DNA of 32,000 bases from Geotalea uraniireducens Rf4. Its GTDB lineage: Bacteria > Desulfobacterota > Desulfuromonadia > Geobacterales > Geobacteraceae. The notes beneath the pieces are model-generated. The model worked only from the letters and a program-made list of their open reading frames with translations. It ran no database searches and was not told where the DNA came from. The stretch's first letter is position 1; every line of letters starts with the position of its first letter. Below are positions 1-29,746 of the stretch, in pieces. The DNA lies in NCBI RefSeq assembly GCF_000016745.1, contig NC_009483.1:4230001-4262000 (forward strand). The letters run 5' to 3'. The position numbers and the translations under genes are program-made.

Positions 1-82
1 CCGTTTTCCTCACATGCAACATTTATCCATTAGTGTCCGATTAGAAGATTGCACTCTCCAAGCCATAAAAACCAGCACATTG

Positions 83-187
83 CACCCTCCCCTAACCCCT
101 CCCATCAAGGGAGGGGAGCTTTTAGGTCCCCTCGCCCCTTGTGGACCCAAACAGCGGGCCTAAAGGAGAGGGCTAGGGTGAGGGGAG
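83..187. repeat. GC-rich REP-like palindromic intergenic element (family 1, copy 1)
   Basis: Perfect 8-bp hairpin CCCCTCCC-atcaa-GGGAGGGG at 96-116. Outer arms CACCCTCCCCTAAC (left) and GCTAGGGTGAGGGG (right) are related as inverted repeats. The 24-nt core GGACCCAAACAGCGGGCCTAAAGG (143-166) recurs at 4051-4074 with 22/24 identity. The listed 61-aa ORF 49-234 is simply a translation of this element. Confidence 0.6.
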
Positions 188-312
188 AAGTGCGGATGCA
201 AAAACTAACCAGACATTGCTACCCAGCATTTTAACCGCAAAGACACCAGGAGACAAAGCATTTCTTCAGGAAAAGGGGCGGTGTCCCGGTCATCGCTATT
301 GGAAGTATGCCG

Positions 313-1053
313 TCATACTACGCCGCCGTCAACGACCAGGCACTGGCCGGTGATATACGACGCCCGCTCCGAGGCGAGGAACGCCACCGCCTCGGCAACC
401 TCCTCGACCCTGCCGATCCGCCCCAGCGACGCGCTCTTGACGATTTTATCCACCATTTCGGGCTTCATGGCAGCGGTCATCTCCGTCTCGATCAGTCCCG
501 GCGCCACGGCATTGACCCTGATCCCCATCGGCCCGACTTCCCTGGCCAGCGAACGGGTGAAACTCATCGCCGCCCCCTTGCTTGCTGCGTAGTTGGTCTG
601 TCCGGCAGTGCCGGTCAGGGCGGAGATGGAGGAGAGGTTGACGATAATCCCGCGCCGGTTGCCGATCATCTTCCGCACCCCCCACTTGCAGCAGTGGAAC
701 AGCGGGTAGAGGTTCCCCCTGAGCACCGCATCCCAGTCCTCGTCGGACATCATGGGGAGGTAGCCGTCGCGGATTATGCCGGCGTTGTTGACGAGGATAT
801 CGATGGCGCCGCCGTCTCCTGCCGCTGCCTCCATAAGGGCCATGGCCCCCTCGGCGGTGGCAACGTCCGCCTTCACCGCACTGATCGTGCCTGCCAGACC
901 GAAAGCCTCTTCCATCAAGGCCGCGGCCGCAGCATCGTTAGTCAGATAAGCAGCGGTGACCTGCGCCCCGAGCCGGGCGAAGTGCAGCGAGATGGCCCGG
1001 CCGATCCCTCTGGTGCCGCCGGTGACGACGACGATCTTGTCCTTGAACTCCAT
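313..1053 (-). CDS. fabG: 3-oxoacyl-ACP reductase (FabG-type classical SDR)
   Basis: 246 aa with TGGTRGIG cofactor motif, NNAG, and YAASK (YxxxK) catalytic motif. GAGGAG RBS lies about 6 nt upstream of the ATG at 1053. It is the last gene seen in the minus-strand operon. Confidence 0.9.
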   Translation of the reverse strand: MEFKDKIVVVTGGTRGIGRAISLHFARLGAQVTAAYLTNDAAAAALMEEAFGLAGTISAVKADVATAEGAMALMEAAAGDGGAIDILVNNAGIIRDGYLPMMSDEDWDAVLRGNLYPLFHCCKWGVRKMIGNRRGIIVNLSSISALTGTAGQTNYAASKGAAMSFTRSLAREVGPMGIRVNAVAPGLIETEMTAAMKPEMVDKIVKSASLGRIGRVEEVAEAVAFLASERASYITGQCLVVDGGVV

Positions 1054-1075
1054 GGTTACTCCTCAATACATTTAG

Positions 1076-1262
1076 ATCCACCACGAAATCACGGAGAAAG
1101 GCAGAACCTATTTACCGCAAAGACGCGAAGAGAACCTAAAACCTTTTTGGATTTAAACCAAAAGATTCCAGGATCTTAAACCCGGTCTTTGTTTTTCTTT
1201 GCGTCTTTGCGGTTCGATGGTTCTCAGGTACTGCCTTTCCTCTGTGTCTCTGTGGCAAATGG
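1076..1262. repeat. Long (~187 bp) imperfect palindrome / MITE-like element between the B12-rSAM and fabG genes
   Basis: The left arm 1078-1135 is CACGAAATCACGGAGAAAGGCAGAACCT...ACCGCAAAGACGCGAAGAGAAC. It matches the reverse complement of the right arm 1191-1261, which reads CACAGAGACACAGAGGAAAGGCAGTACCT...ACCGCAAAGACGCAAAGAAAAAC. Central small hairpin TTTTGG-atttaaa-CCAAAA. A partial third copy of ACCGCAAAGAC sits at 233-243. Confidence 0.7.
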
Positions 1263-1265
1263 TAG

Positions 1266-2648
1266 TTACATCGGCTTTACCCGGCTCCGCCCCAGCCGCT
1301 TCATCAGTTTCCACAACGGACCGCGCACCGGAAAGTGGCGCAACGCTTCGAGCATGGCGTCGCTCATGTTGATCTCCAGCCCCGGCGCCACCCAGTTTTT
1401 CCGGGCCAGCGCCCGTTCGGTCACCATCCGGCAAAGCGTCTCCCGGATGGGGGGCGAGATGTAGAAAACCGGCTCAAGAAGCGATGTCCGGCTGGTGATG
1501 ACGCCATCCGCCAGCGCCGCATCATGGAGGGGGGTGCCTGGAAATATCCTGATGCCGGTCATGGCAATGACCGCGGTCGGCTCCAGCTCGTCCATCAGGG
1601 AAAAGCTCTCGTCTATGGTCGCCTCGCTCTCGCCCGGGCCGCCGAAGAGGATGTAGTGGGCAAAATCCGCCCCCTGCTCCCTGCAGAGGCGGGAGGCGCT
1701 CCGCACATCTTCCACGCCGAACGACTTGCCGAGGTTACGCAGCATCTGCGCCGAACCGGATTCGCTGCCGAACTCCACGGCATCGCAGCCGGCTGCAATC
1801 ATGGCATTCAGCAGTGACGGGGTTACAAAGGCGGGATTGATGAACGCAGTCCAATTGATCGGCAGCTGCTCGGCAATGATGGCGCGGCAGAGCTCTTCGG
1901 CAAATTCCGGCGGATAGTTGAAGATATCATCGACAAAATAGATGTAACTGACGCCGAATCCATCGACAAGCGACCTGATCTCGGCGACGATCTCGCCGAT
2001 GGGGCGAAGCCTGATGCTGTTCCCCTCCAGGATCGGATAGGTGCAGTAAATACAGGTAAAAGGGCAGCCGCGCTTGGTCTGCAGATTGGCCATCCCCCCT
2101 TCGCGGTGGTAGCGGTCAACCGTGAAATGGCTCCGTTCAGCCGGGCCGATATTTTGTACGAGCCGGGCCGGGAGGCAGCCCGCCTCCCCCTTGACGAGCA
2201 CTCCCGGCAAAGAGCGAGGTGAAGCGCCGTCTGCCAGTGATGCAACCAGCTCCGGCAGAACTTCCTCCCCCTCGCCGACCACGCCGTAGTCGCCATCCAG
2301 GTAGGCGAGCAGTTCCACCGGCATGAGAGAGAAACCGGAACCGCCCAGAATGACCGGCGCTTTTCCCCGGCAGAGGTCCACGACCTTCCTGACCCCGGGC
2401 AGATAGGAACGGCTCCCGGGAAAAGTGACGTTGTCGATGTTCCTGATGGAAATCACCACCGCCGCGGGCATGAAGTCGAGGAGCGCCTCGCTCACGGCCG
2501 CGTCCGGGTCATCGGCAAAGCAGAGGTCGAGCACCCGCAGGCGATGCCCCCGTGCAGCCAGCGGCCCGGCAAGATAGGAAAGACCCAGGGGGAAGACCGG
2601 GTACGGGCTTTTCTCCCTGTTGGCGGAAATGAGCAGGATATCCATCAC
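1266..2648 (-). CDS. B12-binding-domain radical SAM protein (1 of 3)
   Basis: 460 aa. N-terminal Rossmann-like B12-binding region (ILLISANREKSPYPVFPLGLSYLAG), then the radical SAM motif CPFTCIYC. The start is GTG 2648 or ATG 2645, and both overlap the stop of the upstream thioesterase gene. Confidence 0.9.
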   Translation of the reverse strand: MMDILLISANREKSPYPVFPLGLSYLAGPLAARGHRLRVLDLCFADDPDAAVSEALLDFMPAAVVISIRNIDNVTFPGSRSYLPGVRKVVDLCRGKAPVILGGSGFSLMPVELLAYLDGDYGVVGEGEEVLPELVASLADGASPRSLPGVLVKGEAGCLPARLVQNIGPAERSHFTVDRYHREGGMANLQTKRGCPFTCIYCTYPILEGNSIRLRPIGEIVAEIRSLVDGFGVSYIYFVDDIFNYPPEFAEELCRAIIAEQLPINWTAFINPAFVTPSLLNAMIAAGCDAVEFGSESGSAQMLRNLGKSFGVEDVRSASRLCREQGADFAHYILFGGPGESEATIDESFSLMDELEPTAVIAMTGIRIFPGTPLHDAALADGVITSRTSLLEPVFYISPPIRETLCRMVTERALARKNWVAPGLEINMSDAMLEALRHFPVRGPLWKLMKRLGRSRVKPM

Positions 2649-3064
2649 ACCCCCAGAAAGGCCATCAGCCCCTGAAGCCTCTCGGCGATCACTTGCGGCA
2701 GTGCATATTGCAACACCCCGTCCCTGTCGGTCAGGGCATGCACCGTCCGGCCGGAAGCGGACAGCTTGCCCTCCTCGCCGAAGATGTCGCAGGCAAACTC
2801 CAGGGTGGCGGTTTCCGTGCGCCGCAGCGTAGTCCGTACCCGCAGTTCCTCGCCGAAGCGGGCCGGTCTTATGAATTTCAGCTCCAACGCCACCACCGGC
2901 GCCAGGTAGCCCGAATCTGCTATCTGTACCGCATCCAGGCCGAAGCGGCCGGCCAGGTCGTTGCGCCCGACTTCCATCCAGGCCACATAATGGCCGTGCC
3001 AGGCTATCTTATAGGCATCAACCTCGTTGAAGCGGACCTTTATCAAGGTTTCGTGAAAGTTCAC
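2645..3064 (-). CDS. Hot-dog fold acyl-CoA/acyl-ACP thioesterase (4HBT/YbgC-like)
   Basis: The core FHETLIKVRFNEVDAYKIAWHGHYVAWMEVGRNDL is typical of 4HBT thioesterases. I place the start at GTG 3064, which has an AAGAGGG RBS 5 nt upstream and gives about 139 aa. The longest ORF runs to GTG 3163, but its extra 33 codons are the translation of a heptad-repeat element, so the start is uncertain. Confidence 0.8.
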   Translation of the reverse strand: MNFHETLIKVRFNEVDAYKIAWHGHYVAWMEVGRNDLAGRFGLDAVQIADSGYLAPVVALELKFIRPARFGEELRVRTTLRRTETATLEFACDIFGEEGKLSASGRTVHALTDRDGVLQYALPQVIAERLQGLMAFLGV

Positions 3065-3159
3065 CAGTCCCTCTTTAACAAGGAGCGAGGAGCGATGCAC
3101 GAGGCACGAAGCACGAGGTCCGAGGAGCGAGGAAAGACTCGTTCCTTTATCCTCGTTCG
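3065..3159. repeat. Heptad-repeat structured element (CACGAGG/CACGAAG type)
   Basis: GCACGAG-GCACGAA-GCACGAG tandem heptads at 3097-3118. They are flanked by GAGGAGCGA direct repeats (about 3085-3095 and 3122-3132). An imperfect hairpin GAGGAAAG-actcgtt-CCTTTATCCTC follows. The element fills the gap between the FabD-like stop (3160) and the likely thioesterase start. Confidence 0.55.
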
Positions 3160-4020
3160 TCACCGATGTTCGCTCTCGATCCAGCGGTTGTATTTCTTCA
3201 GTGAATCCCCCACCCCCACCTCGAAGAAGGTCCTGACCCCGGACGCACGCAGGGCGTGATAGGTCTTTTCCCAGAATACCGGCTGGAAGAGCTGCCGCAG
3301 CATGAAATCGGCCAGGTCCGCAGCTGTGAGGTACTCCTGGTCAAGATGATCCATTAACGGGCAGAACGGCTCTGCGTAATGGTAATCGGCAAAGATGTCC
3401 CGCAATTCCTCTTCCGCCTCCGCCATCAGCGGGGTGTGGAGCGGAGCGTCACAGTCGAAGGTCTTTGCCGAAAAGGCCCCCTGCGCCAACGCTTCCGCCA
3501 TGGCCGTTTCCATATCCGGCCGCGTACCGGCCAGGAGAAAGTGACGGGAGGTGTTGTGGTTGGCCAAATGGACACCGTTATTTTCGGCAACGGCCAGAAG
3601 CGGCTCCAGGGTGAGGCCGATCACGCAGCCGAGGGCGTACCGGCGGCTCTTTCCCATCTGCGCCAGACACGAGCCGACACGACAGGTCAGCTCGACGACT
3701 TCCGCTTCGGGAAGGCAGCCGCAGGCGGCCAGAGCCGGATAGATCCCCATGCTGTGCTCGGCGACCAGATCCGGCGTTACCCCTTGACGGCGCATCTTCC
3801 GCGCCTGGTAAATGCTCATTGCCACGCCGAAGAGCTGGAGCTTGACGTTGTCGGTGCTCCCCTCCCCCAGCCAACTGAAGCTTTCCAGGTCGAAGCGGGC
3901 CCGTTCTCTCACCATCCCGGCAATGGCGGAAAAGTCGTCATCCACCGGCAACGTAGCGCTGCGCGACAAAGGTTGTCCGGGAAACATGAAACAGTTCATC
4001 AATAATAAACTCCGTAACAT
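3160..4020 (-). CDS. FabD-like acyltransferase (malonyl-CoA:ACP transacylase superfamily)
   Basis: 286 aa. The nucleophile elbow is AEHSMGIYPALAACG, with EHSMG in place of canonical GHSLG. Length and layout fit a stand-alone AT domain. Confidence 0.75.
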   Translation of the reverse strand: MLRSLLLMNCFMFPGQPLSRSATLPVDDDFSAIAGMVRERARFDLESFSWLGEGSTDNVKLQLFGVAMSIYQARKMRRQGVTPDLVAEHSMGIYPALAACGCLPEAEVVELTCRVGSCLAQMGKSRRYALGCVIGLTLEPLLAVAENNGVHLANHNTSRHFLLAGTRPDMETAMAEALAQGAFSAKTFDCDAPLHTPLMAEAEEELRDIFADYHYAEPFCPLMDHLDQEYLTAADLADFMLRQLFQPVFWEKTYHALRASGVRTFFEVGVGDSLKKYNRWIESEHR

Positions 4021-4028
4021 TCAGCAAC

Positions 4029-4143
4029 AAATTCCCCCCTTTGAGAAAGGGGACCCAAACTGTGGGCCTAAAGGGCAAGGGGGGATTTTCCTGGCTGCGA
4101 TGAAAGGCAAATCCCCCTAAATCCCCCTTTCATAAAGGGGGAC
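4029..4143. repeat. GC-rich REP-like palindromic intergenic element (family 1, copy 2)
   Basis: Outer inverted pair AAATTCCCCCCT (4029-4040) and AGGGGGGATTTT (4078-4089). Perfect hairpins CCCCTTT-gag-AAAGGGG (4036-4052) and TCCCCCTTT-cat-AAAGGGGGA (4122-4142). Tandem AAATCCCCCT x2 at 4109-4128. Core GGACCCAAACTGTGGGCCTAAAGG (4051-4074) is shared with 143-166. Confidence 0.65.
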
Positions 4144-4174
4144 TTGGTCTTTCGGAAGATTGGCACAAATCTGC

Positions 4175-5464
4175 CTACCCCTTGAATTTCGCCGTGCGGC
4201 GAATGGCGCTCCGGAAACCGAAATTCATCGGCGCAAAGACCTGCACGGAGCGGTGCAGCTTGAAAATCCGCCGATACATGGAGGAGAACGAGTAAAATGA
4301 GCTGTTAAGCCAGTCATGACCGGCCTGAAGCTCCGCGGCGGTCATCCCGCGGGGGATGAAGTTCACGTGCCCCATGTCGTAATCCCGCCAGTCGTTGGAG
4401 GTGATCCGCCCCTCCTCTTCCAGCCTCTTGCGGACCTGCGTGCCGGGATAGGGGGTGAGGATCGGAAAGATCGCCGCCTCGATTCGTGCCGCCTCGCAAA
4501 AACGAAGGATCGGCTCGAAAACCGCCGGCGTGTCGCCGTCGCAGCCGAGCACGAATGAACCTAGGATGCCGATACCATTATCGCGGAACGCCCTGGCTTG
4601 CTCGAGGTATGCGTCGGCCCGGTTGGTCACCTTCCCCATGGCGACGAGCGCCTCCTGGTTGAGCGACTCGAAACCGACGAACATGCCGATGCAGCCGGCC
4701 TCACCGGCCGCCCGCATCAGCTCTGGGTCTTTGGCGAAATCGATGGGGGCGTGGGAGAGCCACTTGAACCTCATCCCGCGCATGGCGGAAAAGAGTGACA
4801 AGGCGTAACGCCGGTTGGCCACCAGGTTATCGTCGACGAAAAAGGCAAATGAATTGTTCTTGCGCAGGATTTCCAGCTCGGCAAGCACCTGCTCAACCGG
4901 CCGTTCCCGGTATTTTCTGCCGTAAAAGGCGGTGACGGAACAGAATTCGCAGTCAAAGGGACAGCCGCGGGTCGTCTGGATTGTGTTGGTGAGGAGGTAC
5001 CCCTTGCGGTCGAAGATTTCGCGGCGGGCAACGGGAAGGTCGGCCATGTCGAGCATGGCGCCAGGGCGATAAACCGGTTGCAGCGCCCCCCGTTCGAAGT
5101 CGGCAATCAGTCGGGGCCAGACCAGATCCCCCTCGCCGACCACCACCGCATGCACATGGTTCAGCGCCTCGTCGGGAAGATTGCTGGCATGAAAGCCGCC
5201 CATGACCACACTGACACCCCTGGCGCGAAAAGCCGCGGCAATCTCGTAGGCACGGGGCGCCTGTGGAGTCATGGCGGTAATCGCCACCAGGTTGACATCG
5301 GCGGCAAGGTCGAGCGGCTCCACGTTCTCGTCACACAGCGCCACGTGCCAGTGCGCCGGCGTGGCCGCGGCAATGACGGCAAGCGAGAGGGACGGGAATT
5401 TGAATCCCAGTTCCCCCCACAATCTCCCCTTCGGCCATCCGGGAGAGACGAGGAGCAGTTTCAT
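4175..5464 (-). CDS. B12-binding-domain radical SAM protein (2 of 3)
   Basis: 429 aa. N-terminal B12-binding-like region (MKLLLVSPGWPKG...), radical SAM motif CPFDCEFC. Its ATG overlaps the ACP stop in an ATGA arrangement at 5461-5464. Confidence 0.9.
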   Translation of the reverse strand: MKLLLVSPGWPKGRLWGELGFKFPSLSLAVIAAATPAHWHVALCDENVEPLDLAADVNLVAITAMTPQAPRAYEIAAAFRARGVSVVMGGFHASNLPDEALNHVHAVVVGEGDLVWPRLIADFERGALQPVYRPGAMLDMADLPVARREIFDRKGYLLTNTIQTTRGCPFDCEFCSVTAFYGRKYRERPVEQVLAELEILRKNNSFAFFVDDNLVANRRYALSLFSAMRGMRFKWLSHAPIDFAKDPELMRAAGEAGCIGMFVGFESLNQEALVAMGKVTNRADAYLEQARAFRDNGIGILGSFVLGCDGDTPAVFEPILRFCEAARIEAAIFPILTPYPGTQVRKRLEEEGRITSNDWRDYDMGHVNFIPRGMTAAELQAGHDWLNSSFYSFSSMYRRIFKLHRSVQVFAPMNFGFRSAIRRTAKFKG

Positions 5465-5718
5465 TTACGATGTTCCGCGATATAAGCCGCCATGGTCCTG
5501 ACCGACTGGAAAACCTTGGTACCGGTCGCAGCATCGGCCACCACCACGCCGAATGCCTTTTCCATCCCCACCACCAGCTGCAGGGCGTCGATGGAATCAA
5601 GCCCCAACCCTTCACCAAAAAGTGGAGCGTCGGTGTCGATATCAGCGATTGACATCCCCTCAATGCGGAGACTGTCGATGATCAGTTGCTTAACCTGGTT
5701 TATCAATTCTTCAGACAT
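5461..5718 (-). CDS. Acyl carrier protein (dedicated, cluster-specific)
   Basis: 85 aa. Phosphopantetheine attachment motif GLGLDSIDALQLV and an acidic helical carrier-protein pattern. It starts 1 nt after the stop of the upstream acyltransferase gene. Confidence 0.9.
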   Translation of the reverse strand: MSEELINQVKQLIIDSLRIEGMSIADIDTDAPLFGEGLGLDSIDALQLVVGMEKAFGVVVADAATGTKVFQSVRTMAAYIAEHRK

Positions 5719-6621
5719 CTACAAACCCTTTTCCTTCTCTGTATTTTCATCCGCCCAGTAATCGAAAAAGTTGTACCACTGGTCGGGATAAGTTCTGATA
5801 TGGCGTTCGAAAACCCGGATAATCCGCTCTGTTCCTTCTTTGATCGACCGGGCATGCTCGGCATGCCCCCCGCTGAAATAAATCGGCTCCTCCATGATCG
5901 TGGCGTAGCGGCTCCCCTCCAGGGGAACAAAAACCGGGATGACCGGCGCACCGCTGGCGAGGGCCAGGTAGGCGGCGCCCAGCGGAATGGGAGCCGGCCT
6001 GCCGAAAAAGTCGAGGGTCATGGTGTGGGAGGAGCCGTCCCGCTCGCCGAGAAGCGCCAGAACCTCGTTACGCCGCAGGGCGTTAACCGCCTCGATCACC
6101 GCCAGCGGCGAGGTATCGTCGCGGTCCACATAGATGAAGCGGATACCACGCTCCCGCCGCACCTGCTCCCGCAGCTCGTTGACCCGCTCATCCGGCTCCC
6201 GGAAGGTGAGGACGTTGAGGGGATACCCCATGTCCGCCAGTCCCAGGCCGCCCAATTCCCAGTTTCCCAGGTGCGGGGAGATGAGGATGGCGCCGCACCC
6301 CGCCGCCAGGGCATCATCGAGGGCCCGGCCGCTTGACCTCCTGCCGATCAGCGATTGCAGTTTCGAGCCGCGCCACCGCATCATCAGCATCACGTCGCAC
6401 CAGTTGAGGGCGAACTTGTAATAGGTTGCGAATACCAGTCGTTCAACATCCCGCATACCGGTGATGACCCGGAGATTAGACCTGATGCCGCGCCGCTTCT
6501 CCGGCAGCATCAGGTAAAAGAGCCCACCCCAGAAGAGGGCGAAGGGGGGATGGAGAAACCGGGGGACCAGTATGGTAAAGAGTCTGATGAAAAACAGGTT
6601 TAAACTGCTGTAAAGTGCCAA
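5719..6621 (-). CDS. LpxL/HtrB-family (lysophospholipid / lipid A late) acyltransferase
   Basis: 300 aa. N-terminal hydrophobic anchor (FTILVPRFLHPPFALFWGGLFYLML), then SPHLGNWE. This is the HxxxxD/E-type motif region typical of lauroyl/myristoyl acyltransferases. Confidence 0.8.
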   Translation of the reverse strand: MALYSSLNLFFIRLFTILVPRFLHPPFALFWGGLFYLMLPEKRRGIRSNLRVITGMRDVERLVFATYYKFALNWCDVMLMMRWRGSKLQSLIGRRSSGRALDDALAAGCGAILISPHLGNWELGGLGLADMGYPLNVLTFREPDERVNELREQVRRERGIRFIYVDRDDTSPLAVIEAVNALRRNEVLALLGERDGSSHTMTLDFFGRPAPIPLGAAYLALASGAPVIPVFVPLEGSRYATIMEEPIYFSGGHAEHARSIKEGTERIIRVFERHIRTYPDQWYNFFDYWADENTEKEKGL

Positions 6622-6653
6622 TGAGCTGCCTTCTCGTTAAACTGCTGCCAATA

Positions 6654-8009
6654 CTAGAAAAAAAGATCGAATGCACAGGCCAGCATTTTTTTCAGCCTGA
6701 AGTCCTGTTTTTTGCCGTAATCCTTAAAATCGTCCACCGCTTTTGTCGATCGCCGGTAAAACCTGATGTATGCCTTGATGAGCAAAAACTGGAGCAGATG
6801 GCGGTTGATGCGCGGGTGGCGGAAGACGAGATGAAGCGCATCATAAAATTTCCAGCGTTTGACGAATATCCGCTCCTTCACCTCCTCGTAAAGTGCGGTG
6901 CCGGGATAGGGGGTCAGGATGGAGAACTGGGCAACGTTGGTGTTGAGCTTGACCGCCAGATCGATGGTTCGTTCAATGTCTTTGCGGCTCTCGTTAAGAT
7001 GGCCGAGTATGTAGCTGCCGAACACCTCGATGCCGTTTTCCTGCAACAGCTTTACCGCTGCGGCGGTCTCATCCCCCTGCCCTTTTTTGCCGAGCATTTG
7101 CAGCGCTTCGGCTCCGGCGCTCTCGATGCCGAGGAATATGGTCTTTGCCCCGGCGGCAGACATGGCCCGCACCATCTGCGGGTTTCTGACAATGGTATCG
7201 ACACGGGAAAAATTCCACCATTTCAGGTCAAAGCCACGTTCGCGGATACCCTCGGCAATGCCGATGACCCGTTCGGGCGAAAGGCTGAAGTTGTCGTCGA
7301 CAAAAGCAACCGCCCGGAAACCGTAGCGGGTGTAAACCTCGTCCAGCTCGGCCAGCACCGACTCGGGACTACGGCTGCGCCAGCCACGGCCGAAAAAGTT
7401 TGAAGAGGAACAGAAAGAGCAGCCACCGGGACAACCGCGGCTCGTCACCACCGGCGTCAGAAGAACACCGTCGACAACAGCGCTGTATCGGTTCAGGTCC
7501 AGGAGGTGGCGGGCGGGCAATGGGAGCAGCTCCACATCGGGCGTAGCGCCGTTGGGCGTTTCCACCAGGGTTTTGCCGTCACGAAAGATAATGCCGTCAA
7601 CCGCCGCCGGCTCCTCGCGCCGTTCCAATGCCTCGACCAGGCGGGGAAAGGTGAGTTCCCCCTCCCCTTTGATTATGTACTGGACATGACCGGTGCGGAG
7701 GATCTCATCGGCCATGAACTGGGGATGGGGCCCACCCATCACCACCGGACGTCCCAGGGCTGCTGCCTGCCGGGCAATGAGCATGGCCTTTTCTATGCGG
7801 GTGGTGTCCGAGGTAATGCCGACCAGGTCGGCGGCCTTGACGTCGAAGGCACAAAGCCCGTCAGGCTCGATCTGCAGGTCTTTTACCTGCACCGTATGAC
7901 CGGCCTGCTCAAGGCAGGCGGCGATGTAGAGCAGCCCCATAGGCGGCAGACTCACGCCGAAGGTGGTAAACACACCGGTGGACGGCGGATTTACCAGGAG
8001 AATCCTCAT
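6654..8009 (-). CDS. B12-binding-domain radical SAM protein (3 of 3)
   Basis: 451 aa. Begins MRILLVNPPS in a B12-binding-like region, radical SAM motif CPGGCSFC. Its start overlaps the stop of the upstream rSAM gene (ATGA at 8006-8009). Confidence 0.9.
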   Translation of the reverse strand: MRILLVNPPSTGVFTTFGVSLPPMGLLYIAACLEQAGHTVQVKDLQIEPDGLCAFDVKAADLVGITSDTTRIEKAMLIARQAAALGRPVVMGGPHPQFMADEILRTGHVQYIIKGEGELTFPRLVEALERREEPAAVDGIIFRDGKTLVETPNGATPDVELLPLPARHLLDLNRYSAVVDGVLLTPVVTSRGCPGGCSFCSSSNFFGRGWRSRSPESVLAELDEVYTRYGFRAVAFVDDNFSLSPERVIGIAEGIRERGFDLKWWNFSRVDTIVRNPQMVRAMSAAGAKTIFLGIESAGAEALQMLGKKGQGDETAAAVKLLQENGIEVFGSYILGHLNESRKDIERTIDLAVKLNTNVAQFSILTPYPGTALYEEVKERIFVKRWKFYDALHLVFRHPRINRHLLQFLLIKAYIRFYRRSTKAVDDFKDYGKKQDFRLKKMLACAFDLFF

Positions 8010-9403
8010 CCCTTGACGTCACCGGCCCGCTTCGTCTGCCCGACTTCAGCGGCAAATTCCCGCTCCCAGGCAGGGTCGGCAATCTCGCCGTAGCGGCCTG
8101 CGTAATCGTCCATTTCCCGCGCCAGATCTGTAAAAATCTCGGCAGCACCGTCGTGGGTCGAATAGGCCCCCTCCGTGCCGAACAATTCACGCCCCACTTC
8201 CGGGTGGTCGATGAGCATGCACGGCCGCAGCAGATTGTCGTGTTCACCCTGCTTCTCCCTGATTTTGCGAAACAGCGGCGACCTCAAGGCCTCCTTGATG
8301 GAGGTGCGGCGGATGTTGTCCACGGCAAAGTGGCAGAAGACGCACGGCTCGATGTCACCGTTGGCATTAATATGGAAGTATTTGCGACCGCCGGCAAGGC
8401 AGCCGCTGATCATCGGCCCGTCATTCCAGAAGTCGATGAAGAGCATCGGCTTTGTTGCACGGAATTCGGCTGTGCTGCGCCGCATGAAATCGCGCTGCTC
8501 CGGAGTGGGCATCAGCCCTATCTCCGGCTTCCGTCCCACCGGCACGTAGGAAAAGAGCCAGAGGGCAAAACATCCCTTTTCCACCAGCATGTCGATGTAG
8601 CTGCCGTCGGTGATGATGCCGGTATTTTTATTCGTCTGGGTGAAGGAGCCGCAAAAGGAGAGGCCGGCTGCACGCAGGAGGTCCATGGCGTGCATCACCT
8701 TCCGGAAATGCCCGGCGCCGCGCCGCTCGTCGGTTTCCTTTTCATACCCTTCGAGGGAAAAGGCGGGCATCACGTTACCCACCTCGATCAGGCGCTCCAC
8801 CATCCGTTCGTCGATCAGCCCGCCATGGGTAAAGACGAGAAACGCCATGTCCGAATGTTTCTTGAAAATCTCGAAGATGTCATCCTTAAAAAACGGCTCG
8901 CCACCGGAAATGACGGCAAAATAGACCCCCATCTCCTTCATCTGCATCAACACCGAGTCGATCTCTTCCAGGGAGAGTTCCAGGGATTTCTGATAATCGC
9001 CGGCATAGCATCCGTAACAGGAAAGGTTGCACTTCATGGTGGGGCTGATGACCACCGTCGAAGGGGGGTAGTATCCCTCCCGGTCCGCCCACGTCTTACG
9101 CTTGTTGGTGCCGGAGAGGAGGTGGTTGACCGCCAGATTGGTGATCCACTTGTCGCGCTGGTTCGGATGAAGATCGCGCAGTATGCGGCGCGGAAACTCC
9201 ATGCTCGGGTGGTTGTCACGGATAAGCTGCCGCATCCACCTGATCCGCTCCCGGTAATAATCCTTCTTCGGGATGAGTTCCATAAGGTAGGTCATCCGCG
9301 CCAGGGTTTCATTGGACGAACTGGTCGCCAAAGAAAGGAGCAGCGAAATTATTTTTTCCGTCGAGTAATTTTTCAGGCTCTGGAGCATTTTCACCCACTT
9401 CAT
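8006..9403 (-). CDS. Radical SAM protein with probable C-terminal auxiliary Fe-S (SPASM/twitch-like) region and a long N-terminal extension
   Basis: 465 aa. The motif CNLSCYGC begins about 115 residues in. C-terminal cysteines occur in ISGCLAGG, EPCVFCHF and RPCMLIDHP. Confidence 0.8.
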   Translation of the reverse strand: MKWVKMLQSLKNYSTEKIISLLLSLATSSSNETLARMTYLMELIPKKDYYRERIRWMRQLIRDNHPSMEFPRRILRDLHPNQRDKWITNLAVNHLLSGTNKRKTWADREGYYPPSTVVISPTMKCNLSCYGCYAGDYQKSLELSLEEIDSVLMQMKEMGVYFAVISGGEPFFKDDIFEIFKKHSDMAFLVFTHGGLIDERMVERLIEVGNVMPAFSLEGYEKETDERRGAGHFRKVMHAMDLLRAAGLSFCGSFTQTNKNTGIITDGSYIDMLVEKGCFALWLFSYVPVGRKPEIGLMPTPEQRDFMRRSTAEFRATKPMLFIDFWNDGPMISGCLAGGRKYFHINANGDIEPCVFCHFAVDNIRRTSIKEALRSPLFRKIREKQGEHDNLLRPCMLIDHPEVGRELFGTEGAYSTHDGAAEIFTDLAREMDDYAGRYGEIADPAWEREFAAEVGQTKRAGDVKG

Positions 9404-9460
9404 TCAACGCTGATTTCCAGCAGATTGCAACTGTTTGACCCGCATGCTTACTGCCGGCGT

Positions 9461-10129
9461 TTAAGTTCTCATGTATTTCAAAAAAGTCATGCAGATATTC
9501 CAGGTATCGCGCACCGGCCGGTAATGGCTTGTGGCGCGGCCATCGGCCACACGCGCTGCTATCGGCAGGGAACCGATCATGAATCCGCCGCGCCAGGCCT
9601 TCATGAGGATCTCCATCTCCAAGTCGTAACCGGAAGCGGCAAGCTCCACGCCTCGCAACAACCTGGCAGAGTAATAGCGGAACCCGGACTGGCTGTCGCT
9701 TATCTCGAAGCCGGTCCGCTTCCTCATGCACCAGACACCAAAACGGTTCCAGAAACTGCGCAGGCCGGCCATCTGCTCGAACTGGGAAAAGCGGGAAGCG
9801 ATGAGGATGTCAAACCCCTTTTCCCTTGCGGCTTCAGCCAGCAGCCGAATGGCGGCAACGTCGTGCTGGCCGTCGGCATCAATGGTCACCACCCCTTCAT
9901 ACCCATGCATAAGCGCCCAGGCAAAGCCGGTTCTGAGGGCCGCCCCTTTGCCGAGGTTCTGCCGGTGGGTGAGGATGTTCAGCGGCAGGTGCTCTATGCG
10001 TGCAACGGTAGCATCCGTTGAGCCGTCATCGACGACCAGGAGCGGAAACCCGGAATTGAGCGCTTCTTCAGCCACGGCGGCAATGGTTTTCCCGGCGTTA
10101 TAGGCCGGAACGATTACGCAGATTGCCAC
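9461..10129 (-). CDS. Family 2 glycosyltransferase (Dpm1/GtrB-like)
   Basis: 222 aa with VIVPAYNAGKTI, VVDDGSTD and DADGQH (DxD) motifs. GTG start overlaps the 3' end of the deacetylase gene by 16 nt. Confidence 0.85.
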   Translation of the reverse strand: MAICVIVPAYNAGKTIAAVAEEALNSGFPLLVVDDGSTDATVARIEHLPLNILTHRQNLGKGAALRTGFAWALMHGYEGVVTIDADGQHDVAAIRLLAEAAREKGFDILIASRFSQFEQMAGLRSFWNRFGVWCMRKRTGFEISDSQSGFRYYSARLLRGVELAASGYDLEMEILMKAWRGGFMIGSLPIAARVADGRATSHYRPVRDTWNICMTFLKYMRT

Positions 10130-10968
10130 GTTGCCACCAGCTGCCTCATGGTACGGAATCTGAAATTTTGCAAAAGATGCCTGAGCCGTCCCTCTGCATC
10201 GCTCCTGGTTCCGTAGGCGGCAAAGGATTTCAGGGGCGAAAGACTGAGCCGCGGGCCAAAAGCCTCCATCTCCCGGGGGTGCAGATAGAGCACTGCCGGC
10301 ATTCCGGCATCATTGAGCTTTTTCACGGTGCGGCTTATCATCGACAGGGAAAAGAACCTGAAACCCCACCCGCCGCCGGTCGGCAGGTTGCAGATGGGAG
10401 ATGGGGTCACCATCGGCGGCAGCTCGAAAATACTCCCAGCGGAGGTCGCAATCGAAAACGGAGTGCGCGCCCCCCGGCGGTCGCCGATGAATGGAAGCGG
10501 GTTATAACTTGAATCGTACAAGCAACCTTCCTCATGCAAAATATCCAGCGCCCACGGAGTTTCAGGGCCAAGCGACCATTGGGGCGCCCTGAAACCGACC
10601 GGTTTGCATCCGGCCTGCGTTCCGATTATTTCAGCCGTGCGTCGAATCTCGTCCCGGAATTTCTTCGGCCCGAGAAGCGGTACCAGGGTGTGGGAATAAC
10701 CGTGAGAGGATACTTCATGGCCCGCGGCAACTATCATGGGGACCAGCAACGGCTCTTCTTCCGCAACCGACCCAAGCATGAAGAAAGTGGCCTTCACACC
10801 AAATTCAGCCAACATCGCCAGTATCCGCTCGATATTCTGCCGTACCCGCCTTTTTCCTGCGGGAACAACGGGCTCCGCGTCGCCACAGCAAACGTGATAC
10901 CAGTCTTCAACATCAATAGTCAACGCGTTATGCACCGGTATAAGAAAAACCCACCCCACCCCTGACAA
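10114..10968 (-). CDS. CE4 polysaccharide deacetylase family protein (resembles the PEP-CTERM-locus / DUF3473 subfamily)
   Basis: N-terminal NALTIDVEDWYHV and later HGYSH histidine motifs. The start is uncertain: TTG 10968 gives the longest ORF, and GTG 10935 gives MHNALTIDVEDW. First gene of the minus-strand operon, divergent from mltG. Confidence 0.8.
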   Translation of the reverse strand: MSGVGWVFLIPVHNALTIDVEDWYHVCCGDAEPVVPAGKRRVRQNIERILAMLAEFGVKATFFMLGSVAEEEPLLVPMIVAAGHEVSSHGYSHTLVPLLGPKKFRDEIRRTAEIIGTQAGCKPVGFRAPQWSLGPETPWALDILHEEGCLYDSSYNPLPFIGDRRGARTPFSIATSAGSIFELPPMVTPSPICNLPTGGGWGFRFFSLSMISRTVKKLNDAGMPAVLYLHPREMEAFGPRLSLSPLKSFAAYGTRSDAEGRLRHLLQNFRFRTMRQLVATWQSA

Positions 10969-11220
10969 AATTAGAGTGGTAGGTTACACCATGTAAAGTG
11001 TTAAGTCAATACAAGCAGACACTTACGCCCGGTTACCGGGCGGATCCGCGGCACCCCCCGTATTATGCCGAAAACAGTGACGATAAACATCATTCGATAT
11101 TCGACCATGTGGCGACAGGGGGGATTTGGCCTTGACATAAGGGCGAATATAACCTACAAGTATCCGATAATCGGCGTTTTACCCCCATTTCACGTAACCA
11201 TTTCCAACATTAAATCCGCA

Positions 11221-15982: not shown

Positions 15983-16144
15983 TGGTGCCTCCCTGCAGGA
16001 ATTCACGCTCTGTTCTTCTTACAATGTTTTGCGCCCTGGAGCAAGCACCACGTGCAATAGTTCAGACGTGTCAAGCCGCTTTGCCTCATGTTCAGGATTC
16101 TCTTTGCTTTTATCAATTTATTGCAAGGAATGTCGAAATTTACT

Positions 16145-16160
16145 TGGCAAATCTTTTGCA
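16145..16160 (+). promoter_or_regulatory. Sigma-54-type -24/-12 promoter-like motif upstream of uppP
   Basis: TGGCAA-atctt-TTGCA has correct GG-N10-GC spacing and lies 120 nt upstream of the uppP start. This is a motif match only. Confidence 0.3.
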
Positions 16161-16279
16161 TAATTGCATTCTTGTTAATCGGCATCCAGGTATGCCCCAC
16201 CATCGGCATCTGCCTTTAACTCACGGATTGACGATTGTTGCTAAAGTGGAAAAAACGTTACGTCCCCAAGGAGGCTTGA

Positions 16280-17044
16280 TTGACTATTCTTGAATCTATC
16301 ATACTCGGTGTCGTGGAGGGATTGAGCGAATTCCTCCCCATCTCTTCCACCGGGCACCTCATCCTCGCGTCCGCCCTGTTGAAAATCAAACAGACCGATG
16401 CCCACAAGGTATTCGAGGTTACGATCCAGTCGGGGGCCATACTGGCGGTTGTCTACATCTACCGCAAGCAGCTCGCATCCCGATCGGACCTGCTTCTGAA
16501 GGTTTGCGCCGCATTCATTCCCACGGGGGTCTTAGGCTATCTCCTTTACAAGACCGTCAAATCATTCTTCCAGCCATCGATGGTGAGTTACATGCTGATC
16601 GCAGGGGGGATTGCGTTTTTAGCCATTGAAAGGCATCTGAAGAACCGCTCCTCTGCTGGGGAGGGTCTCCAGGACATCTCCTACGGGAAGGCCTTGCTCA
16701 TAGGGATCATCCAGAGCCTTTCCATGATCCCGGGGGTATCCCGCTCCGGAGCTACCATCATGGGCGGGCTTTTGGTCGGCATGGACAGGAAGGCTGCCGC
16801 AGAGTTCTCCTTTCTCCTCGCCATCCCCACCATGCTCGCGGCCACCGCCTTCGACATATACAAGAACTTCGGCATCTTCAGCTTTGGAGATTGGCAAAAC
16901 ATCCTCGCCGGCTTCGTAACCTCCTTTATCTTTGCCGTTATCGGCATTAAGGCGCTCCTGAAATTCATCACCGGCCATACATTCGTGCCGTTCGCCATCT
17001 ACAGGATCGCCGCAGGGGTCCTGTTCCTCCTGTTTCTGCCGTAG
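16280..17044 (+). CDS. uppP: Undecaprenyl-diphosphate phosphatase UppP (BacA)
   Basis: 254 aa polytopic membrane protein with VEGLSEFLPISSTGHL and PGVSRSGATI signature motifs. TTG start at 16280 is preceded by an AAGGAGG RBS (16268-16274). Confidence 0.9.
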   Translation: MTILESIILGVVEGLSEFLPISSTGHLILASALLKIKQTDAHKVFEVTIQSGAILAVVYIYRKQLASRSDLLLKVCAAFIPTGVLGYLLYKTVKSFFQPSMVSYMLIAGGIAFLAIERHLKNRSSAGEGLQDISYGKALLIGIIQSLSMIPGVSRSGATIMGGLLVGMDRKAAAEFSFLLAIPTMLAATAFDIYKNFGIFSFGDWQNILAGFVTSFIFAVIGIKALLKFITGHTFVPFAIYRIAAGVLFLLFLP

Positions 17045-17223
17045 CATCTTCTCAGCCGGGGAGGACTATTTGCCGGCCGGCCTTCTTCCATTGCAACTCG
17101 GCAGGCACAAAAGAGCGGAACCGTTGAGCTTCATCGAATATTTACCGCCATCAACCGACGCCGGCGTAGACAGCCGCCATCCCTGCAGTGAAGTCATTAA
17201 ACCTGGAAAGAGTAAAAGAACCG

Positions 17224-18102
17224 ATGGGAAACAAATTCATCATTATCTCCTGCATTCTCCTGCTCAGTCTGCATTCCAGCGGAAAGAACGGCTTCGCTGC
17301 CGACAAGCCGGTAGTTCATTTCGGCATTAATTTACGTTACAACCCTGTGATTCTCTACAAGCGCTATCAGCCGCTCATGGATTATCTCACACAGAACTCG
17401 CCGTACAGATTCGAATTGAAAATCAGCCGCGATTACCAGGAAGCCGTCAAGTTCCTGAAAGAAGGAAGAACCCAGATAAGTTCCTTGGGGGATGGCGCTT
17501 TCATCGAAGCCATCCTGCTTCATGGCGCAGTTCCCATTGTCAAGCCGCTCAATAAGGACGGAAAGCCCTTCTACCGATGCGCTATCATCGTCCCGCGCAA
17601 TTCCGCTCTTAATTCCCTTCAGAACCTGCGCGGCAAAAGCATCGCCCTTGGATCATACCATTCAACTACAGGCAACCTTATCCCCAGATATCTTCTTGCG
17701 GTTAACGGTATAAACTTGCAAGGCATTGGCTCTGTCGCATCCCTGAAGAACCACGATGCAGTGACCAAGGCAATCCTGAAGGGACAATATGACGCGGGTG
17801 CTGTCAAGGATGTCTTTGCTGAAAAATACGGGGAATACGGCCTGCGGGTCTTGGCCTACTCCGACCCCATTCCTTCCGTGCCTCTAGTGGTAAGAAACAA
17901 TGCACCCCGTGAGTTTGTAAAGGCGGTCACCGAAGCCCTTTTGAAACTCGATCCGCGCAATCCCGCCCATCAAAAGCTCATGGAGAACTGGGACGAAGAA
18001 TACAAACACGGCTTCGTCTCCGCAGACATCTCAGGCTACCGGGAAATCTTCAGGATGTTTCGCTCGATTCCGAACGGTTGCGGCATGAGGTGTCACCGGT
18101 GA
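17224..18102 (+). CDS. PhnD-like periplasmic substrate-binding protein (phosphonate/phosphite ABC-type SBP fold), no cognate permease or ATPase nearby
   Basis: Start at ATG 17224 gives the signal peptide MGNKFIIISCILLLSLHSSGKNGFA/AD. The segment HFGINLRYNPVILYKRYQPLMDYL...GSYHSTTGNLIPR is typical of the PhnD-like family. Its stop overlaps the kinase start. Confidence 0.75.
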   Translation: MGNKFIIISCILLLSLHSSGKNGFAADKPVVHFGINLRYNPVILYKRYQPLMDYLTQNSPYRFELKISRDYQEAVKFLKEGRTQISSLGDGAFIEAILLHGAVPIVKPLNKDGKPFYRCAIIVPRNSALNSLQNLRGKSIALGSYHSTTGNLIPRYLLAVNGINLQGIGSVASLKNHDAVTKAILKGQYDAGAVKDVFAEKYGEYGLRVLAYSDPIPSVPLVVRNNAPREFVKAVTEALLKLDPRNPAHQKLMENWDEEYKHGFVSADISGYREIFRMFRSIPNGCGMRCHR

Positions 18103-20913: not shown

Positions 20914-21163
20914 GGCTCGGAACTTGGCCGGCTATTTCGCCGAACTGTAAACAATCCTTTACGGTCCCCACTGCCTTCCCATTCGAAATCCATCATTCAA
21001 AGCCAACTTCTCCATAAAAACAACCCGCCGATTCATTTTATATTTCCGATCATATCCCCCCTGCGACATTCCGAAGTATCAACAACCATAAAGGGATTCG
21101 CGAGTAATTTGCCACATTATTAGAATGCGAACAAATGCTGAAAAACCTCTTTCATTAATTGCG

Positions 21164-21179
21164 TGGCACACCTCTTGTT
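21164..21179 (+). promoter_or_regulatory. Sigma-54-type -24/-12 promoter-like motif upstream of the decahaem cytochrome gene
   Basis: TGGCAC-acctc-TTGT has a perfect -24 element and correct spacing. The -12 element is GT rather than GC. It lies about 220 nt upstream of the cytochrome start and directly downstream of a sigma-54 activator gene. Confidence 0.45.
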
Positions 21180-21398
21180 ATAGGAGACAGAAGCAGATAG
21201 GAAGGGAGGTGGAGATTTACGGCAGCTTCTGCACGTTGGGATCAACTAATTCCAATTTTCAAATCGAGGATGGAATCAAGGGCGGCAAGGAATGAGGCGA
21301 CGAAGGCGTACAGATAGTACGTTGAGGAGCCGAAGACGAGCCAACAAAGATAGCGCCTTGATTTGGAATTGGAATAATTCAAGAAGGAGGTTTATTTG

Positions 21399-22298: not shown

Positions 22299-22332
22299 TA
22301 CGGAGTGTCGATCACAAATCAAAGGAGGCAGC

Positions 22333-24840: not shown

Positions 24841-24867
24841 GCATGACCTCCTTCATGCGTGTTATGG

Positions 24868-24891
24868 GCGCCGGCAACGGCGCTTTTTTTT
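24868..24891 (+). terminator. Rho-independent terminator after the barrel gene
   Basis: GCGCCG-gcaa-CGGCGC stem-loop followed by an 8-T run (24884-24891). Confidence 0.8.
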
Positions 24892-24912
24892 GGCCAATTG
24901 AATTAGTCGGTT

Positions 24913-24981
24913 TCACCCCTTCACTTCGGAGACAGGTAAAAAATGTACCTTGCGGATATGGTCTGATATGGGGAATTTCAT
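24913..24981 (-). pseudogene. 22-codon relic of an aminotransferase paralogue (5' end only)
   Basis: By hand alignment, 61/69 nt are identical to 15914-15982, and the last 35 nt are identical. It translates as MKFPISDHIRKVHFLPVSEVKG-stop, against MKFPISDHIRKVHFPPISEVKGW in the intact gene. Homology starts exactly at the ATG and ends 7 nt from the IS end. Confidence 0.7.
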
Positions 24982-24988
24982 CAAATGT

Positions 24989-29719: not shown

Positions 29720-29746
29720 GGGGTCAGGTCAGACATTCGGACATTT
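29720..29746. repeat. Left 27-nt inverted repeat flanking the Y1 transposase-like gene
   Basis: GGGGTCAGGTCAGACATTCGGACATTT. Its reverse complement matches 30697-30723 at 25/27 positions. It overlaps the last 5 sense codons and the stop codon of the gene (KCPNV-stop). Confidence 0.75.

Follow-up and report, generated by a model that had tools for sequence, protein, structure and literature searches.

Aryl polyene (APE) lipids are products of the apeA-R clusters of Escherichia coli CFT073 and Xenorhabdus doucetiae, to which the flexirubin and xanthomonadin clusters are related. The lipid consists of glycerol-phosphate-N-acetylgalactosamine (GalNAc), with the polyene esterified to the 6-OH of the sugar; ApeJ has been proposed first to place GalNAc onto a phospholipid and then to acylate it from the acyl carrier protein (ACP) ApeE, and the product reaches the outer membrane via a LolA-like protein and a transporter of the RND/MMPL type. 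The locus described here, for which this appears, from sequence comparison, to be the closest characterised system, lies at positions 313-10968 of a stretch of 32,000 nucleotides (nt) of Geotalea uraniireducens Rf4 (contig NC_009483.1, positions 4,230,001 to 4,262,000), the whole of which is called the window in the following. In transcription order its eleven genes encode a CE4 deacetylase, a GT2 glycosyltransferase, a radical S-adenosylmethionine (SAM) enzyme of SPASM type, a B12-binding radical SAM enzyme (B12a), an acyltransferase of family PF03279, an ACP, a second B12-binding radical SAM enzyme (B12b), a FabD-like acyltransferase (AT), a thioesterase, a third B12-binding radical SAM enzyme (B12c) and a FabG-type reductase. 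They would be the first eleven of a lipid biosynthesis and export cluster of about 17 genes that is conserved in Geobacterales, and the overall scheme that is favoured, with a probability of about 0.55, is an APE-like pathway to an outer-membrane glycolipid, without an aryl starter and with anaerobic radical tailoring.

A second described class has to be considered along with the APE clusters. In the literature, ladderanes are known from anammox bacteria only, which are organisms without a genetic system, and the 'ladderane' class of antiSMASH rests on Rattray et al. 2009. In that work, a polysaccharide-deacetylase-like gene (Kuste3351) and a glycosyltransferase were reported in the clusters of anammox bacteria and Desulfotalea, similar clusters were noted in Geobacter and Pelobacter, and Desulfotalea psychrophila, which carries a related cluster, was found to contain no ladderanes but polyunsaturated hydrocarbons instead. 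The 'ladderane' clusters of Desulfobacterota and other phyla have been described as of unknown function, and a review of 2026 names, as ketoacyl lipids for which modification by radical SAM enzymes has been proposed, the ladderanes and the Jaw5 product only.

All eleven open reading frames (ORFs) are found on the minus strand (coordinates are window positions, the strand sign is given with each feature, and gene order is transcription order on that strand). The ORF coordinates confirm what a preliminary description of this DNA had reported, namely eleven genes on one strand, with overlaps at 10114-10129, 8006-8009, 5461-5464 and 2645-2648 and an abutment at 5718/5719; a further overlap of 4 nt, at 3160-3163, is conditional on the longest ORF of the thioesterase. 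The minimal spacing that had also been described holds for most junctions, which overlap or leave less than 60 nt, with the exception of two spacers, of 154 nt (4021-4174) and 212 nt (1054-1265). The flanking genes are unrelated, being housekeeping or regulatory ones (MltG, a response regulator with TPR repeats, an aminotransferase and UppP).

The FabG stop sits 312 nt from the window end, and what follows it changes the reading of the cluster. An exact-match lookup with FabG returned only short Logan contigs, which break in the repeat-rich DNA past this gene; the continuation was recovered via a 98%-identical homologue of B12c, which led to a metagenome contig (L083) that is 96-97.5% identical to the window in DNA over the entire cluster (BLASTN), and that has the response regulator and MltG flanks and the eleven genes as in the window. 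Past FabG, L083 carries a spacer of 307 nt, then a ketosynthase (KS) of 413 amino acids (aa), a KS-like protein of 349 aa with an N-terminal KS domain only, a FabZ-like dehydratase of 137 aa, a RhuM-like insert, a LolA protein and an MMPL transporter of 843 aa. In the alignment, window base 1 falls on L083 position 12455, where the KS gene call (L083 12443-13684) has already run for 12 nt; by this gene call, window positions 1-13 (-) hold the first 13 nt of the KS gene, with a GTG at 13-11, and the conserved MMVRKRIAITGLG start of the KS is expected about 20-25 nt outside the window. In a Geotalea relative (L002), the KS has the Cys-His-His set and the KS-like partner lacks both His, the LolA protein resembles flexirubin LolA2, the MMPL protein resembles the HpnN/HAE3 exporters and the small protein resembles FabZ. 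Neither the cluster nor its continuation has a gene for an enoyl reductase. Thus, the statement that KS, dehydratase and enoyl reductase are missing stands inside the window, and for the enoyl reductase also beyond it, whereas KS and dehydratase follow past the edge. Chain building had been judged beyond the reach of the cluster alone, and a preformed acyl group had been postulated as its load; neither claim is supported, as KS, KS-like partner and dehydratase lie directly past that edge: the cluster seemed 'ketosynthase-less' because the window is cut just before the KS genes.

The likeness to the APE system was assessed by comparing the proteins of the E. coli CFT073 ape cluster directly (BLASTP) with those of the window and L083. 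The ACP is 45% identical to ApeE (5e-21), which also passes the NCBIfam model NF006617 (89.5 bits); the thioesterase is 32% identical to ApeK, the two having the same top NCBIfam matches (MenI/YbgC); FabG is 35% identical to ApeQ, and the KS of L083 is 41% identical to ApeO and 31% to ApeR. ApeJ matches two proteins of the window at once: residues 4-214 of the GT2 enzyme align with ApeJ 8-225 (30% identity, 3e-18), and residues 110-297 of the PF03279 acyltransferase with ApeJ 363-558 (25.5% identity, 2e-14). By these alignments, ApeJ is a natural fusion of the two window proteins, which places the attachment of the sugar and the transfer of the chain in a single pathway. Common to both systems would be, moreover, a KS with an inactive KS-like partner, a ketoreductase, a hot-dog dehydratase and the lack of an enoyl reductase, the parts beyond the window edge being those of L083 and its relatives, as well as a LolA-like protein and an MMPL exporter, again in L083 and relatives, although the MMPL protein is only 22% identical to ApeM. 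This family of aryl-polyene and flexirubin-type lipid clusters, the closest one, had been missed when partial precedents were listed, none of which was said to match the gene set.

There are also differences from APE clusters. The KS is closer to FabF, with 293 bits against Bacillus subtilis FabF versus 151 bits against PDB entry 6qsp, which we take to be the APE KS, and genes that APE clusters do not have encode a CE4 deacetylase, a private AT like FabD and between three and six radical SAM enzymes. ApeH, ApeB, ApeD, ApeF, ApeC, ApeA and ApeG have no match among the compared window and L083 proteins, and no AMP-binding domain is found in the proteins of the window or L083; since an ApeH-type ligase that would activate the starter is missing, no aryl head is expected.

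Families were assigned by Pfam and NCBIfam profile searches, in which bit scores were compared with the curated cut-offs; all the families that had been named beforehand were borne out, and curated cut-offs were passed by the ACP on NF006617, by B12c on TIGR04072 and by FabG on the subfamily model NF009466. The CE4 deacetylase (10114-10968 (-), 284 aa; PF01522, 69.6 bits) has a DUF3473 C-terminal domain (PF11959, 112.8 bits) and no signal peptide. Its best NCBIfam match is TIGR03006, the polysaccharide deacetylase of the XrtA system/PEP-CTERM, at 203.8 bits and below the cut-off of 276.2, and its match to NodB is generic (45.6 bits); it is predicted to be the de-N-acetylase of an N-acetylhexosamine (HexNAc) head group. 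The GT2 enzyme (9461-10129 (-), 222 aa; PF00535) is small and soluble, of the lipid-phosphate sugar transferase type (PpgS/DPM1/ArnC-like), with intact DD/DAD motifs. Its best NCBIfam match, below cut-off at 89.4 bits, is PpgS, a lipid-phosphate GalNAc transferase that also tops the matches of ApeJ.

The PF03279 acyltransferase (5719-6621 (-), 300 aa; 93.8 bits) has an N-terminal hydrophobic segment and an HLGNWE motif, and is predicted from its relatives to move the ACP-bound chain to the sugar of a glycolipid. It finds its best NCBIfam match in the phosphatidylinositol mannoside (PIM) acyltransferase (108 bits) and its nearest PDB relative in PatA (64 bits, versus 21 bits for LpxM), the acyltransferase for the 6-OH of mannose on a glycophospholipid. 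The enzyme had been called 'LpxL-type'; in the lipid A sense this identity was rejected on the curated cut-offs and on the PDB ranking, as the cut-offs of the LpxL/LpxM models are missed by far (25.1 bits on TIGR02207, cut-off 297.8; 24 bits on TIGR02208, cut-off 336) and only the broad family PF03279 applies.

At the centre of the cluster, as described from the outset, a private ACP is encoded (5461-5718 (-), 85 aa), a dedicated protein of ApeE type that passes NF006617 with 72.8 bits (cut-off 70) and has its Ser in LGLDSI; one related locus (L003) has a second ACP. The AT (3160-4020 (-), 286 aa; 279 aa in gene calls on related contigs) is FabD/MdcH-like (PF00698), with the active-site motif EHSMG; MdcH (121 bits) and FabD (104 bits) are its NCBIfam matches, both below cut-off, and its predicted role is to charge the private ACP with malonyl units. 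The ApeK-like 4HBT hot-dog thioesterase (2645-3163 (-); PF03061, PF13279) measures 172 aa as the longest ORF, its start being ambiguous (172 aa on contig L081, 139 aa on L083) and its first 33 or so residues unconserved in relatives. The FabG-type 3-oxoacyl-ACP reductase (313-1053 (-), 246 aa) has the catalytic Ser/YxxxK and scores 227.5 bits on NF009466 (cut-off 222), remaining below cut-off on TIGR01830 (266.5 vs 297.75) and on the flexirubin reductase model FlxB (214.9 bits).

The radical SAM enzymes, all of which (4/4) have the CxxxCxxC motif, are without counterpart in APE clusters. The SPASM enzyme (8006-9403 (-), 465 aa; PF04055, PF13186; CNLSCYGC) has a SPASM/twitch-type C-terminal domain and an N-terminal extension of about 110 aa, and passes no NCBIfam model. 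B12a (6654-8009 (-), 451 aa; PF02310, PF04055) is BchE/HpnR-like, although its 198 bits on BchE and 156 bits on HpnR are both far below the cut-offs, and is predicted to be an accessory tailoring gene; B12b (4175-5464 (-), 429 aa; PF02310, PF04055), which has a DUF4070 tail (PF13282) and passes no NCBIfam cut-off, is predicted to be a core tailoring enzyme. B12c (1266-2648 (-), 460 aa; PF02310, PF04055; CPFTCIYC) scores 395.7 bits on TIGR04072 (rSAM_ladder_B12; cut-off 360) over model positions 2-440 of 443, a model that is passed neither by B12a (110.8 bits) nor by B12b (74.8 bits), and NCBI names its homologues 'lipid biosynthesis B12-binding/radical SAM protein'. The link to anammox ladderane genes that had been drawn earlier is an apt one for this reason, and also in view of the similar Geobacter clusters of Rattray et al. 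2009. A hopanoid Hpn identity was also tried and rejected, with at most 123.7 bits on HpnJ (cut-off 577.6), at most 156.1 on HpnR (650) and 20.2 on HpnB (379).

In the PDB, the four enzymes find distant relatives only (TsrM, AprD4, 9ccb, OxsB, CysS, SkfB and BlsE), SkfB and BlsE being those of the SPASM enzyme and TsrM, at 136 bits, the nearest entry to B12c. Methylation is the default guess for the tailoring because the nearest characterised relatives of B12c, TsrM and BzaD, transfer methyl groups. A wider conjecture is that mid-chain methyl fatty acids in Geobacter, Desulfobacter and anammox bacteria could be products of TIGR04072 enzymes. A bolder and rather unlikely proposal is that the SPASM enzyme, B12b and the TIGR04072-type B12c carry out C-C chemistry on an ACP-bound unsaturated chain beyond simple methylation, for which small-ring formation, cross-linking or skeletal rearrangement may serve as examples. 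Should it hold, Geobacterales would make an outer-membrane glycolipid of a new class, and Geobacter relatives would offer a cultivable route to the chemistry of TIGR04072, the suspected ladderane enzyme family.

Conservation was studied by a genome scan with B12c, which returned 224 loci, and was read from the best 80 (62-82% identity). Related loci were mapped by tblastn together with gene calls, longest-ORF calling being confounded by spurious antisense ORFs in this G+C-rich DNA, and genes were counted in loci with enough flank only (n=59 for the upstream genes, n=45 for the part from FabG to LolA). The best 80 of the 224 genome matches are all labelled Geobacterales or relatives, and among the best 120 protein matches every one with an organism name belongs to Geobacterales; the cluster occurs in at least 80 species-level Geobacterales genomes. 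The neighbourhood is kept as a whole, with the upstream core genes in 56-59 of 59 loci: the AT in 59/59, the acyltransferase, ACP and thioesterase in 58/59 each, the SPASM enzyme and B12b in 57/59, the CE4 and GT2 enzymes in 56/59. FabG, KS, KS-like partner, dehydratase and LolA are each found in 39/45. This recurrence of gene order is far beyond chance, and conservation is highest in the ACP and the SPASM enzyme, with a mean identity of 81% and 80%, respectively.

B12a, on the other hand, is present in 13/59 loci only, and the B12-radical SAM genes per cluster range from two to about six, which, next to a core that is kept, is as expected for tailoring enzymes. The extra paralogues stand between B12b and the AT, upstream of CE4 or past MMPL (L015, L017, L024, L026, L063, L069, L076); further B12b-like paralogues, of about 40% identity, occur in many loci, and two more B12-radical SAM genes lie beyond the MMPL gene in L064 (18796-21377). 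Downstream of the MMPL gene of L083, and convergent to it, two genes lie at 19112-21330 (-), one for the lipid A 3-O-deacylase PagL and one for a fifth B12-radical SAM enzyme (472 aa), and the PagL neighbour recurs in L001, L002 and L003. The RhuM-family gene of L083 (15324-15881), between the FabZ-like dehydratase and LolA, is found in 0/45 other loci, which points to a recent insertion in the L083 lineage. One contig labelled as a Pedobacter sp. metagenome-assembled genome (L078, JBAYZR010000162.1), with a 62%-identical B12c and the thioesterase upstream, is probably a mis-binned Geobacterales contig.

In the pathway that these comparisons suggest, the AT would load malonyl on the private ApeE-type ACP, and the KS with its His-less partner, FabG and the FabZ-like dehydratase would build an ACP-bound chain, which would probably be unsaturated or hydroxylated, given the lack of an enoyl reductase gene. 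The core radical SAM enzymes (SPASM, B12b and B12c), with B12a as an accessory, would modify unactivated carbons, C-methylation being the default guess, although for the SPASM enzyme and B12a, whose genes adjoin those of CE4 and GT2, the head group is another possible substrate, on the model of HpnJ. The GT2 enzyme would put HexNAc on a lipid phosphate and the CE4 enzyme remove the acetyl group, after which the PatA/ApeJ-like acyltransferase would attach the ACP-bound chain to the sugar, either on an OH or on the amine thus freed. Editing or release of chains would fall to the ApeK-like thioesterase, and the LolA-like protein and MMPL transporter would carry the lipid to the outer membrane. 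The notion, put forward before, that GT2 and deacetylase together make the amino-sugar head of an acceptor, to which a chain carried by the ACP is then transferred, gains support from the APE analogy (the two halves of ApeJ, and ApeE).

Each tailoring step, taken singly, is far less certain than this overall scheme, and a number of points weigh against the latter. The KS module is outside the window itself and is not adjacent in 6/45 related loci. Most similarities to Ape proteins are in the range of 25-45% identity, several of them generic (FabG, KS), the His-less KS partner has no BLAST match to ApeC, and the cluster has one dehydratase and one ACP. The CE4 enzyme, private FabD and radical SAM enzymes are absent from APE clusters, and both head group and chain could differ substantially; a housekeeping FabI could, furthermore, saturate the chain in trans. 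As B12a, B12b and the SPASM enzyme pass no curated cut-off, and their PDB relatives are distant, the tailoring reaction is a guess. Finally, a literature search on the Geobacter cluster returned no characterisation, product, transcript or mutant data for any member.

Other explanations account for parts of the same evidence. As PF03279 is the family of the lipid A late acyltransferases, the radical-SAM-modified chain could become a secondary acyl group of lipid A, in the manner of AcpXL/LpxXL, while the GT2 and CE4 enzymes, by the logic with which ArnC and ArnD act on polyprenyl-phosphate sugars, would provide an amino sugar on a lipid carrier for the decoration of lipid A or the core. The set of ACP, FabZ, two FabF-like genes and acyltransferase does resemble the acpXL-lpxXL region, and PagL adjoins the cluster in L083 and Geotalea relatives. 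Such remodelling of lipid A is nonetheless unlikely, given that the acyltransferase ranks with PatA rather than LpxM and misses the LpxL/LpxM models by more than 270 bits, that PagL is adjacent in 8/45 loci only and on the opposite strand, that no ArnT-like transferase is present, and that a dedicated LolA and MMPL pair is typical of non-lipopolysaccharide lipids of the outer membrane (APE, hopanoids). A division of the locus into two unrelated units, in which CE4 and GT2 (perhaps with the SPASM enzyme) would serve an exopolysaccharide or PEP-CTERM glycan and the ACP, radical SAM and KS genes a separate lipid or hydrocarbon, would explain why the best curated match of the CE4 enzyme is the XrtA-system polysaccharide deacetylase, would place transcript boundaries in the spacers 4021-4174 and 1054-1265, and would fit the polyunsaturated hydrocarbons of D. 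psychrophila with its related cluster (Rattray et al. 2009). The order CE4-GT2-SPASM-acyltransferase-ACP, which is kept in 56-58 of 59 loci and whose genes overlap or nearly abut, makes this division decidedly unlikely, as do the fusion of GT2 and acyltransferase as ApeJ in E. coli and the failure of the CE4 enzyme to reach the TIGR03006 cut-off.

A pathway that truly lacks a KS, in which a preformed acyl group from primary metabolism would be placed on the private ACP, remodelled by the radical SAM enzymes and transferred, can draw on the absence of a KS from 313-10968, on the 6/45 loci in which B12c has no KS module next to it, so that the upstream genes can be a separate block, and on the private AT, which could in principle load a non-malonyl acyl group. 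It must be regarded as very unlikely, the KS, its partner and the dehydratase following right after FabG in L083 and 39/45 relatives, FabG being itself an enzyme of the elongation cycle, and the best NCBIfam matches of the AT, MdcH and FabD, being malonyl-transferring. Synthesis of ladderanes, that is of concatenated cyclobutane lipids, as proposed for the anammox TIGR04072 clusters, is highly improbable: B12c does pass 'rSAM_ladder_B12', and the private ACP, KS/His-less pair and FabZ do parallel amxACP, amxFabF2/FabFmut and amxFabZ, but the restriction of ladderanes to anammox bacteria and their absence from D. psychrophila speak against it, no phytoene-desaturase-like gene or amine-oxidase domain is found in the proteins of the window or L083, and an APE-like lipid of the outer membrane is what the genes for export and glycolipid synthesis suggest.

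The cluster is real and strongly conserved, and is neither ketosynthase-less nor without precedent; already known are the NCBI name of the enzyme, the Geobacter clusters of Rattray et al. 2009 and the APE-like architecture. Its interest resides in the combination of a curated 'ladderane-type' B12-radical SAM enzyme and two further conserved radical SAM enzymes within an otherwise interpretable, APE-lipid-like pathway. Solving the product would define the role of the TIGR04072 enzyme, explain many 'ladderane' cluster calls in non-anammox anaerobes and enlarge the known outer-membrane lipids of metal-reducing bacteria by one class. Some Geobacter species are genetically manipulable, and in cultivable Geobacterales it becomes possible to test what TIGR04072-type enzymes and their radical SAM partners do.

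The non-coding parts of the cluster deserve separate mention. The spacer 4021-4174 (154 nt) contains two G+C-rich hairpins, with terminator-like sites at 4053-4035 (-) and 4122-4142, and its length varies among strains (a stretch of 139 nt in the window stands against one of 255 nt in L083); it is possibly an internal terminator, an attenuator or a processing site. Most of the 212-nt spacer between B12c and FabG is filled by a palindromic insertion of 200 nt (1063-1263), similar to a miniature inverted-repeat transposable element (MITE) or to repetitive extragenic palindromic (REP) sequences, with an inverted repeat (1103-1143/1184-1224) and an RNA fold of -78 kcal/mol (z = -6.1). It is missing from L083, where the spacer is 15 nt. 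Judged by its sequence, the insertion would be outside the pathway and may affect co-transcription; the core motif of its palindrome, ACCGCAAAGACNC, recurs at 234-246.

The FabG-KS spacer is about 300 nt long in the window and L083, versus about 80-105 nt in the Geotalea loci L001 and L002, which have in common with the window a conserved "GGTTAAAATG" stretch. The extra DNA, G+C-rich and of inverted-repeat type (about 60-200), is where short-read contigs break. A promoter-like match, TTGTCT-17-TAAAAT at 256-228 (-), overlaps the stretch that is conserved in L001 and L002, and may serve the KS block as a promoter of its own inside the cluster. In the scan for sigma-70 promoters and terminators, counts were near the shuffled expectation and do not settle the transcription units; Rfam and tRNA scans gave no matches, including none to a cobalamin riboswitch.

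Elsewhere in the window, an IS200-like Y1 transposase fused to a DnaA-C helix-turn-helix is encoded at 29729-30679 (-), which may be a REP-associated tyrosine transposase, and a DDE_5 transposase at 25169-26455 (-); either could be linked to the scattered palindromic repeats of the window. At 21396-24840 (+), a decahaem cytochrome of DmsE/GSU2203 type and then an outer-membrane porin of the MtrB/PioB family form a porin-cytochrome module for extracellular electron transfer, typical of Geobacter relatives, and upstream of it (17188-20913) a phosphonate-type binding protein, an sCache/HAMP histidine kinase and a sigma-54 response regulator are found. G+C content is 0.565-0.64 in the cluster (1-11000) and 0.51-0.53 in much of 16000-26000, even though the cluster is conserved across Geobacterales.

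A comparison with other described systems helps to place the cluster. The Nod factor module, with NodC as GT2, NodB as CE4, NodA as N-acyltransferase, NodF as ACP and NodE as KS, resembles it in the HexNAc acceptor made by a GT2 enzyme, in the amine freed by a CE4 enzyme, and in the private ACP and KS for an unusual unsaturated chain, the CE4 and GT2 enzymes of the cluster matching it only generically; it differs in its soluble chito-oligosaccharide acceptor, in NodA, which is unrelated to PF03279, and in having no radical SAM enzyme and no LolA/MMPL pair. The AcpXL/LpxXL region of rhizobial lipid A also comprises a private ACP, FabZ, two FabF-like genes and a PF03279 acyltransferase, whereas the acyltransferase of the present cluster is PatA/ApeJ-like, and exporter, sugar genes and radical SAM enzymes are its own. 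With the Hpn, ArnC/ArnD and PpgS systems it has in common that a GT2 enzyme acts on a lipid and that de-N-acylation follows: in HpnI/HpnK/HpnJ, a B12-radical SAM enzyme then remodels the sugar, and ArnC and ArnD are the GT2 and CE4 enzymes that act on polyprenyl-phosphate sugars. HpnK is not known to be a CE4 enzyme; no hopanoid genes are found in the window, and the HpnJ, HpnR, HpnB and ArnC models all remain far below cut-off.

Closer to the cluster stand the two classes from which this account started. The anammox ladderane clusters (Kuenenia Cluster I, KustE3603-3608; Rattray et al. 2009) resemble it in the TIGR04072 B12-radical SAM enzyme, the private ACP, the active and inactive FabF that form a heterodimer of the KS/chain length factor (CLF) kind, and the FabZ variant, but their phytoene-desaturase-like gene is missing from the window and L083, and the ApeJ-like glycolipid genes and the LolA/MMPL exporter set the Geobacterales cluster apart from them. 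On the strength of these homologies, the latter is best described as a radical-SAM-bearing, apparently non-aryl variant of the APE-lipid type, overlapping the known 'ladderane-like' class.

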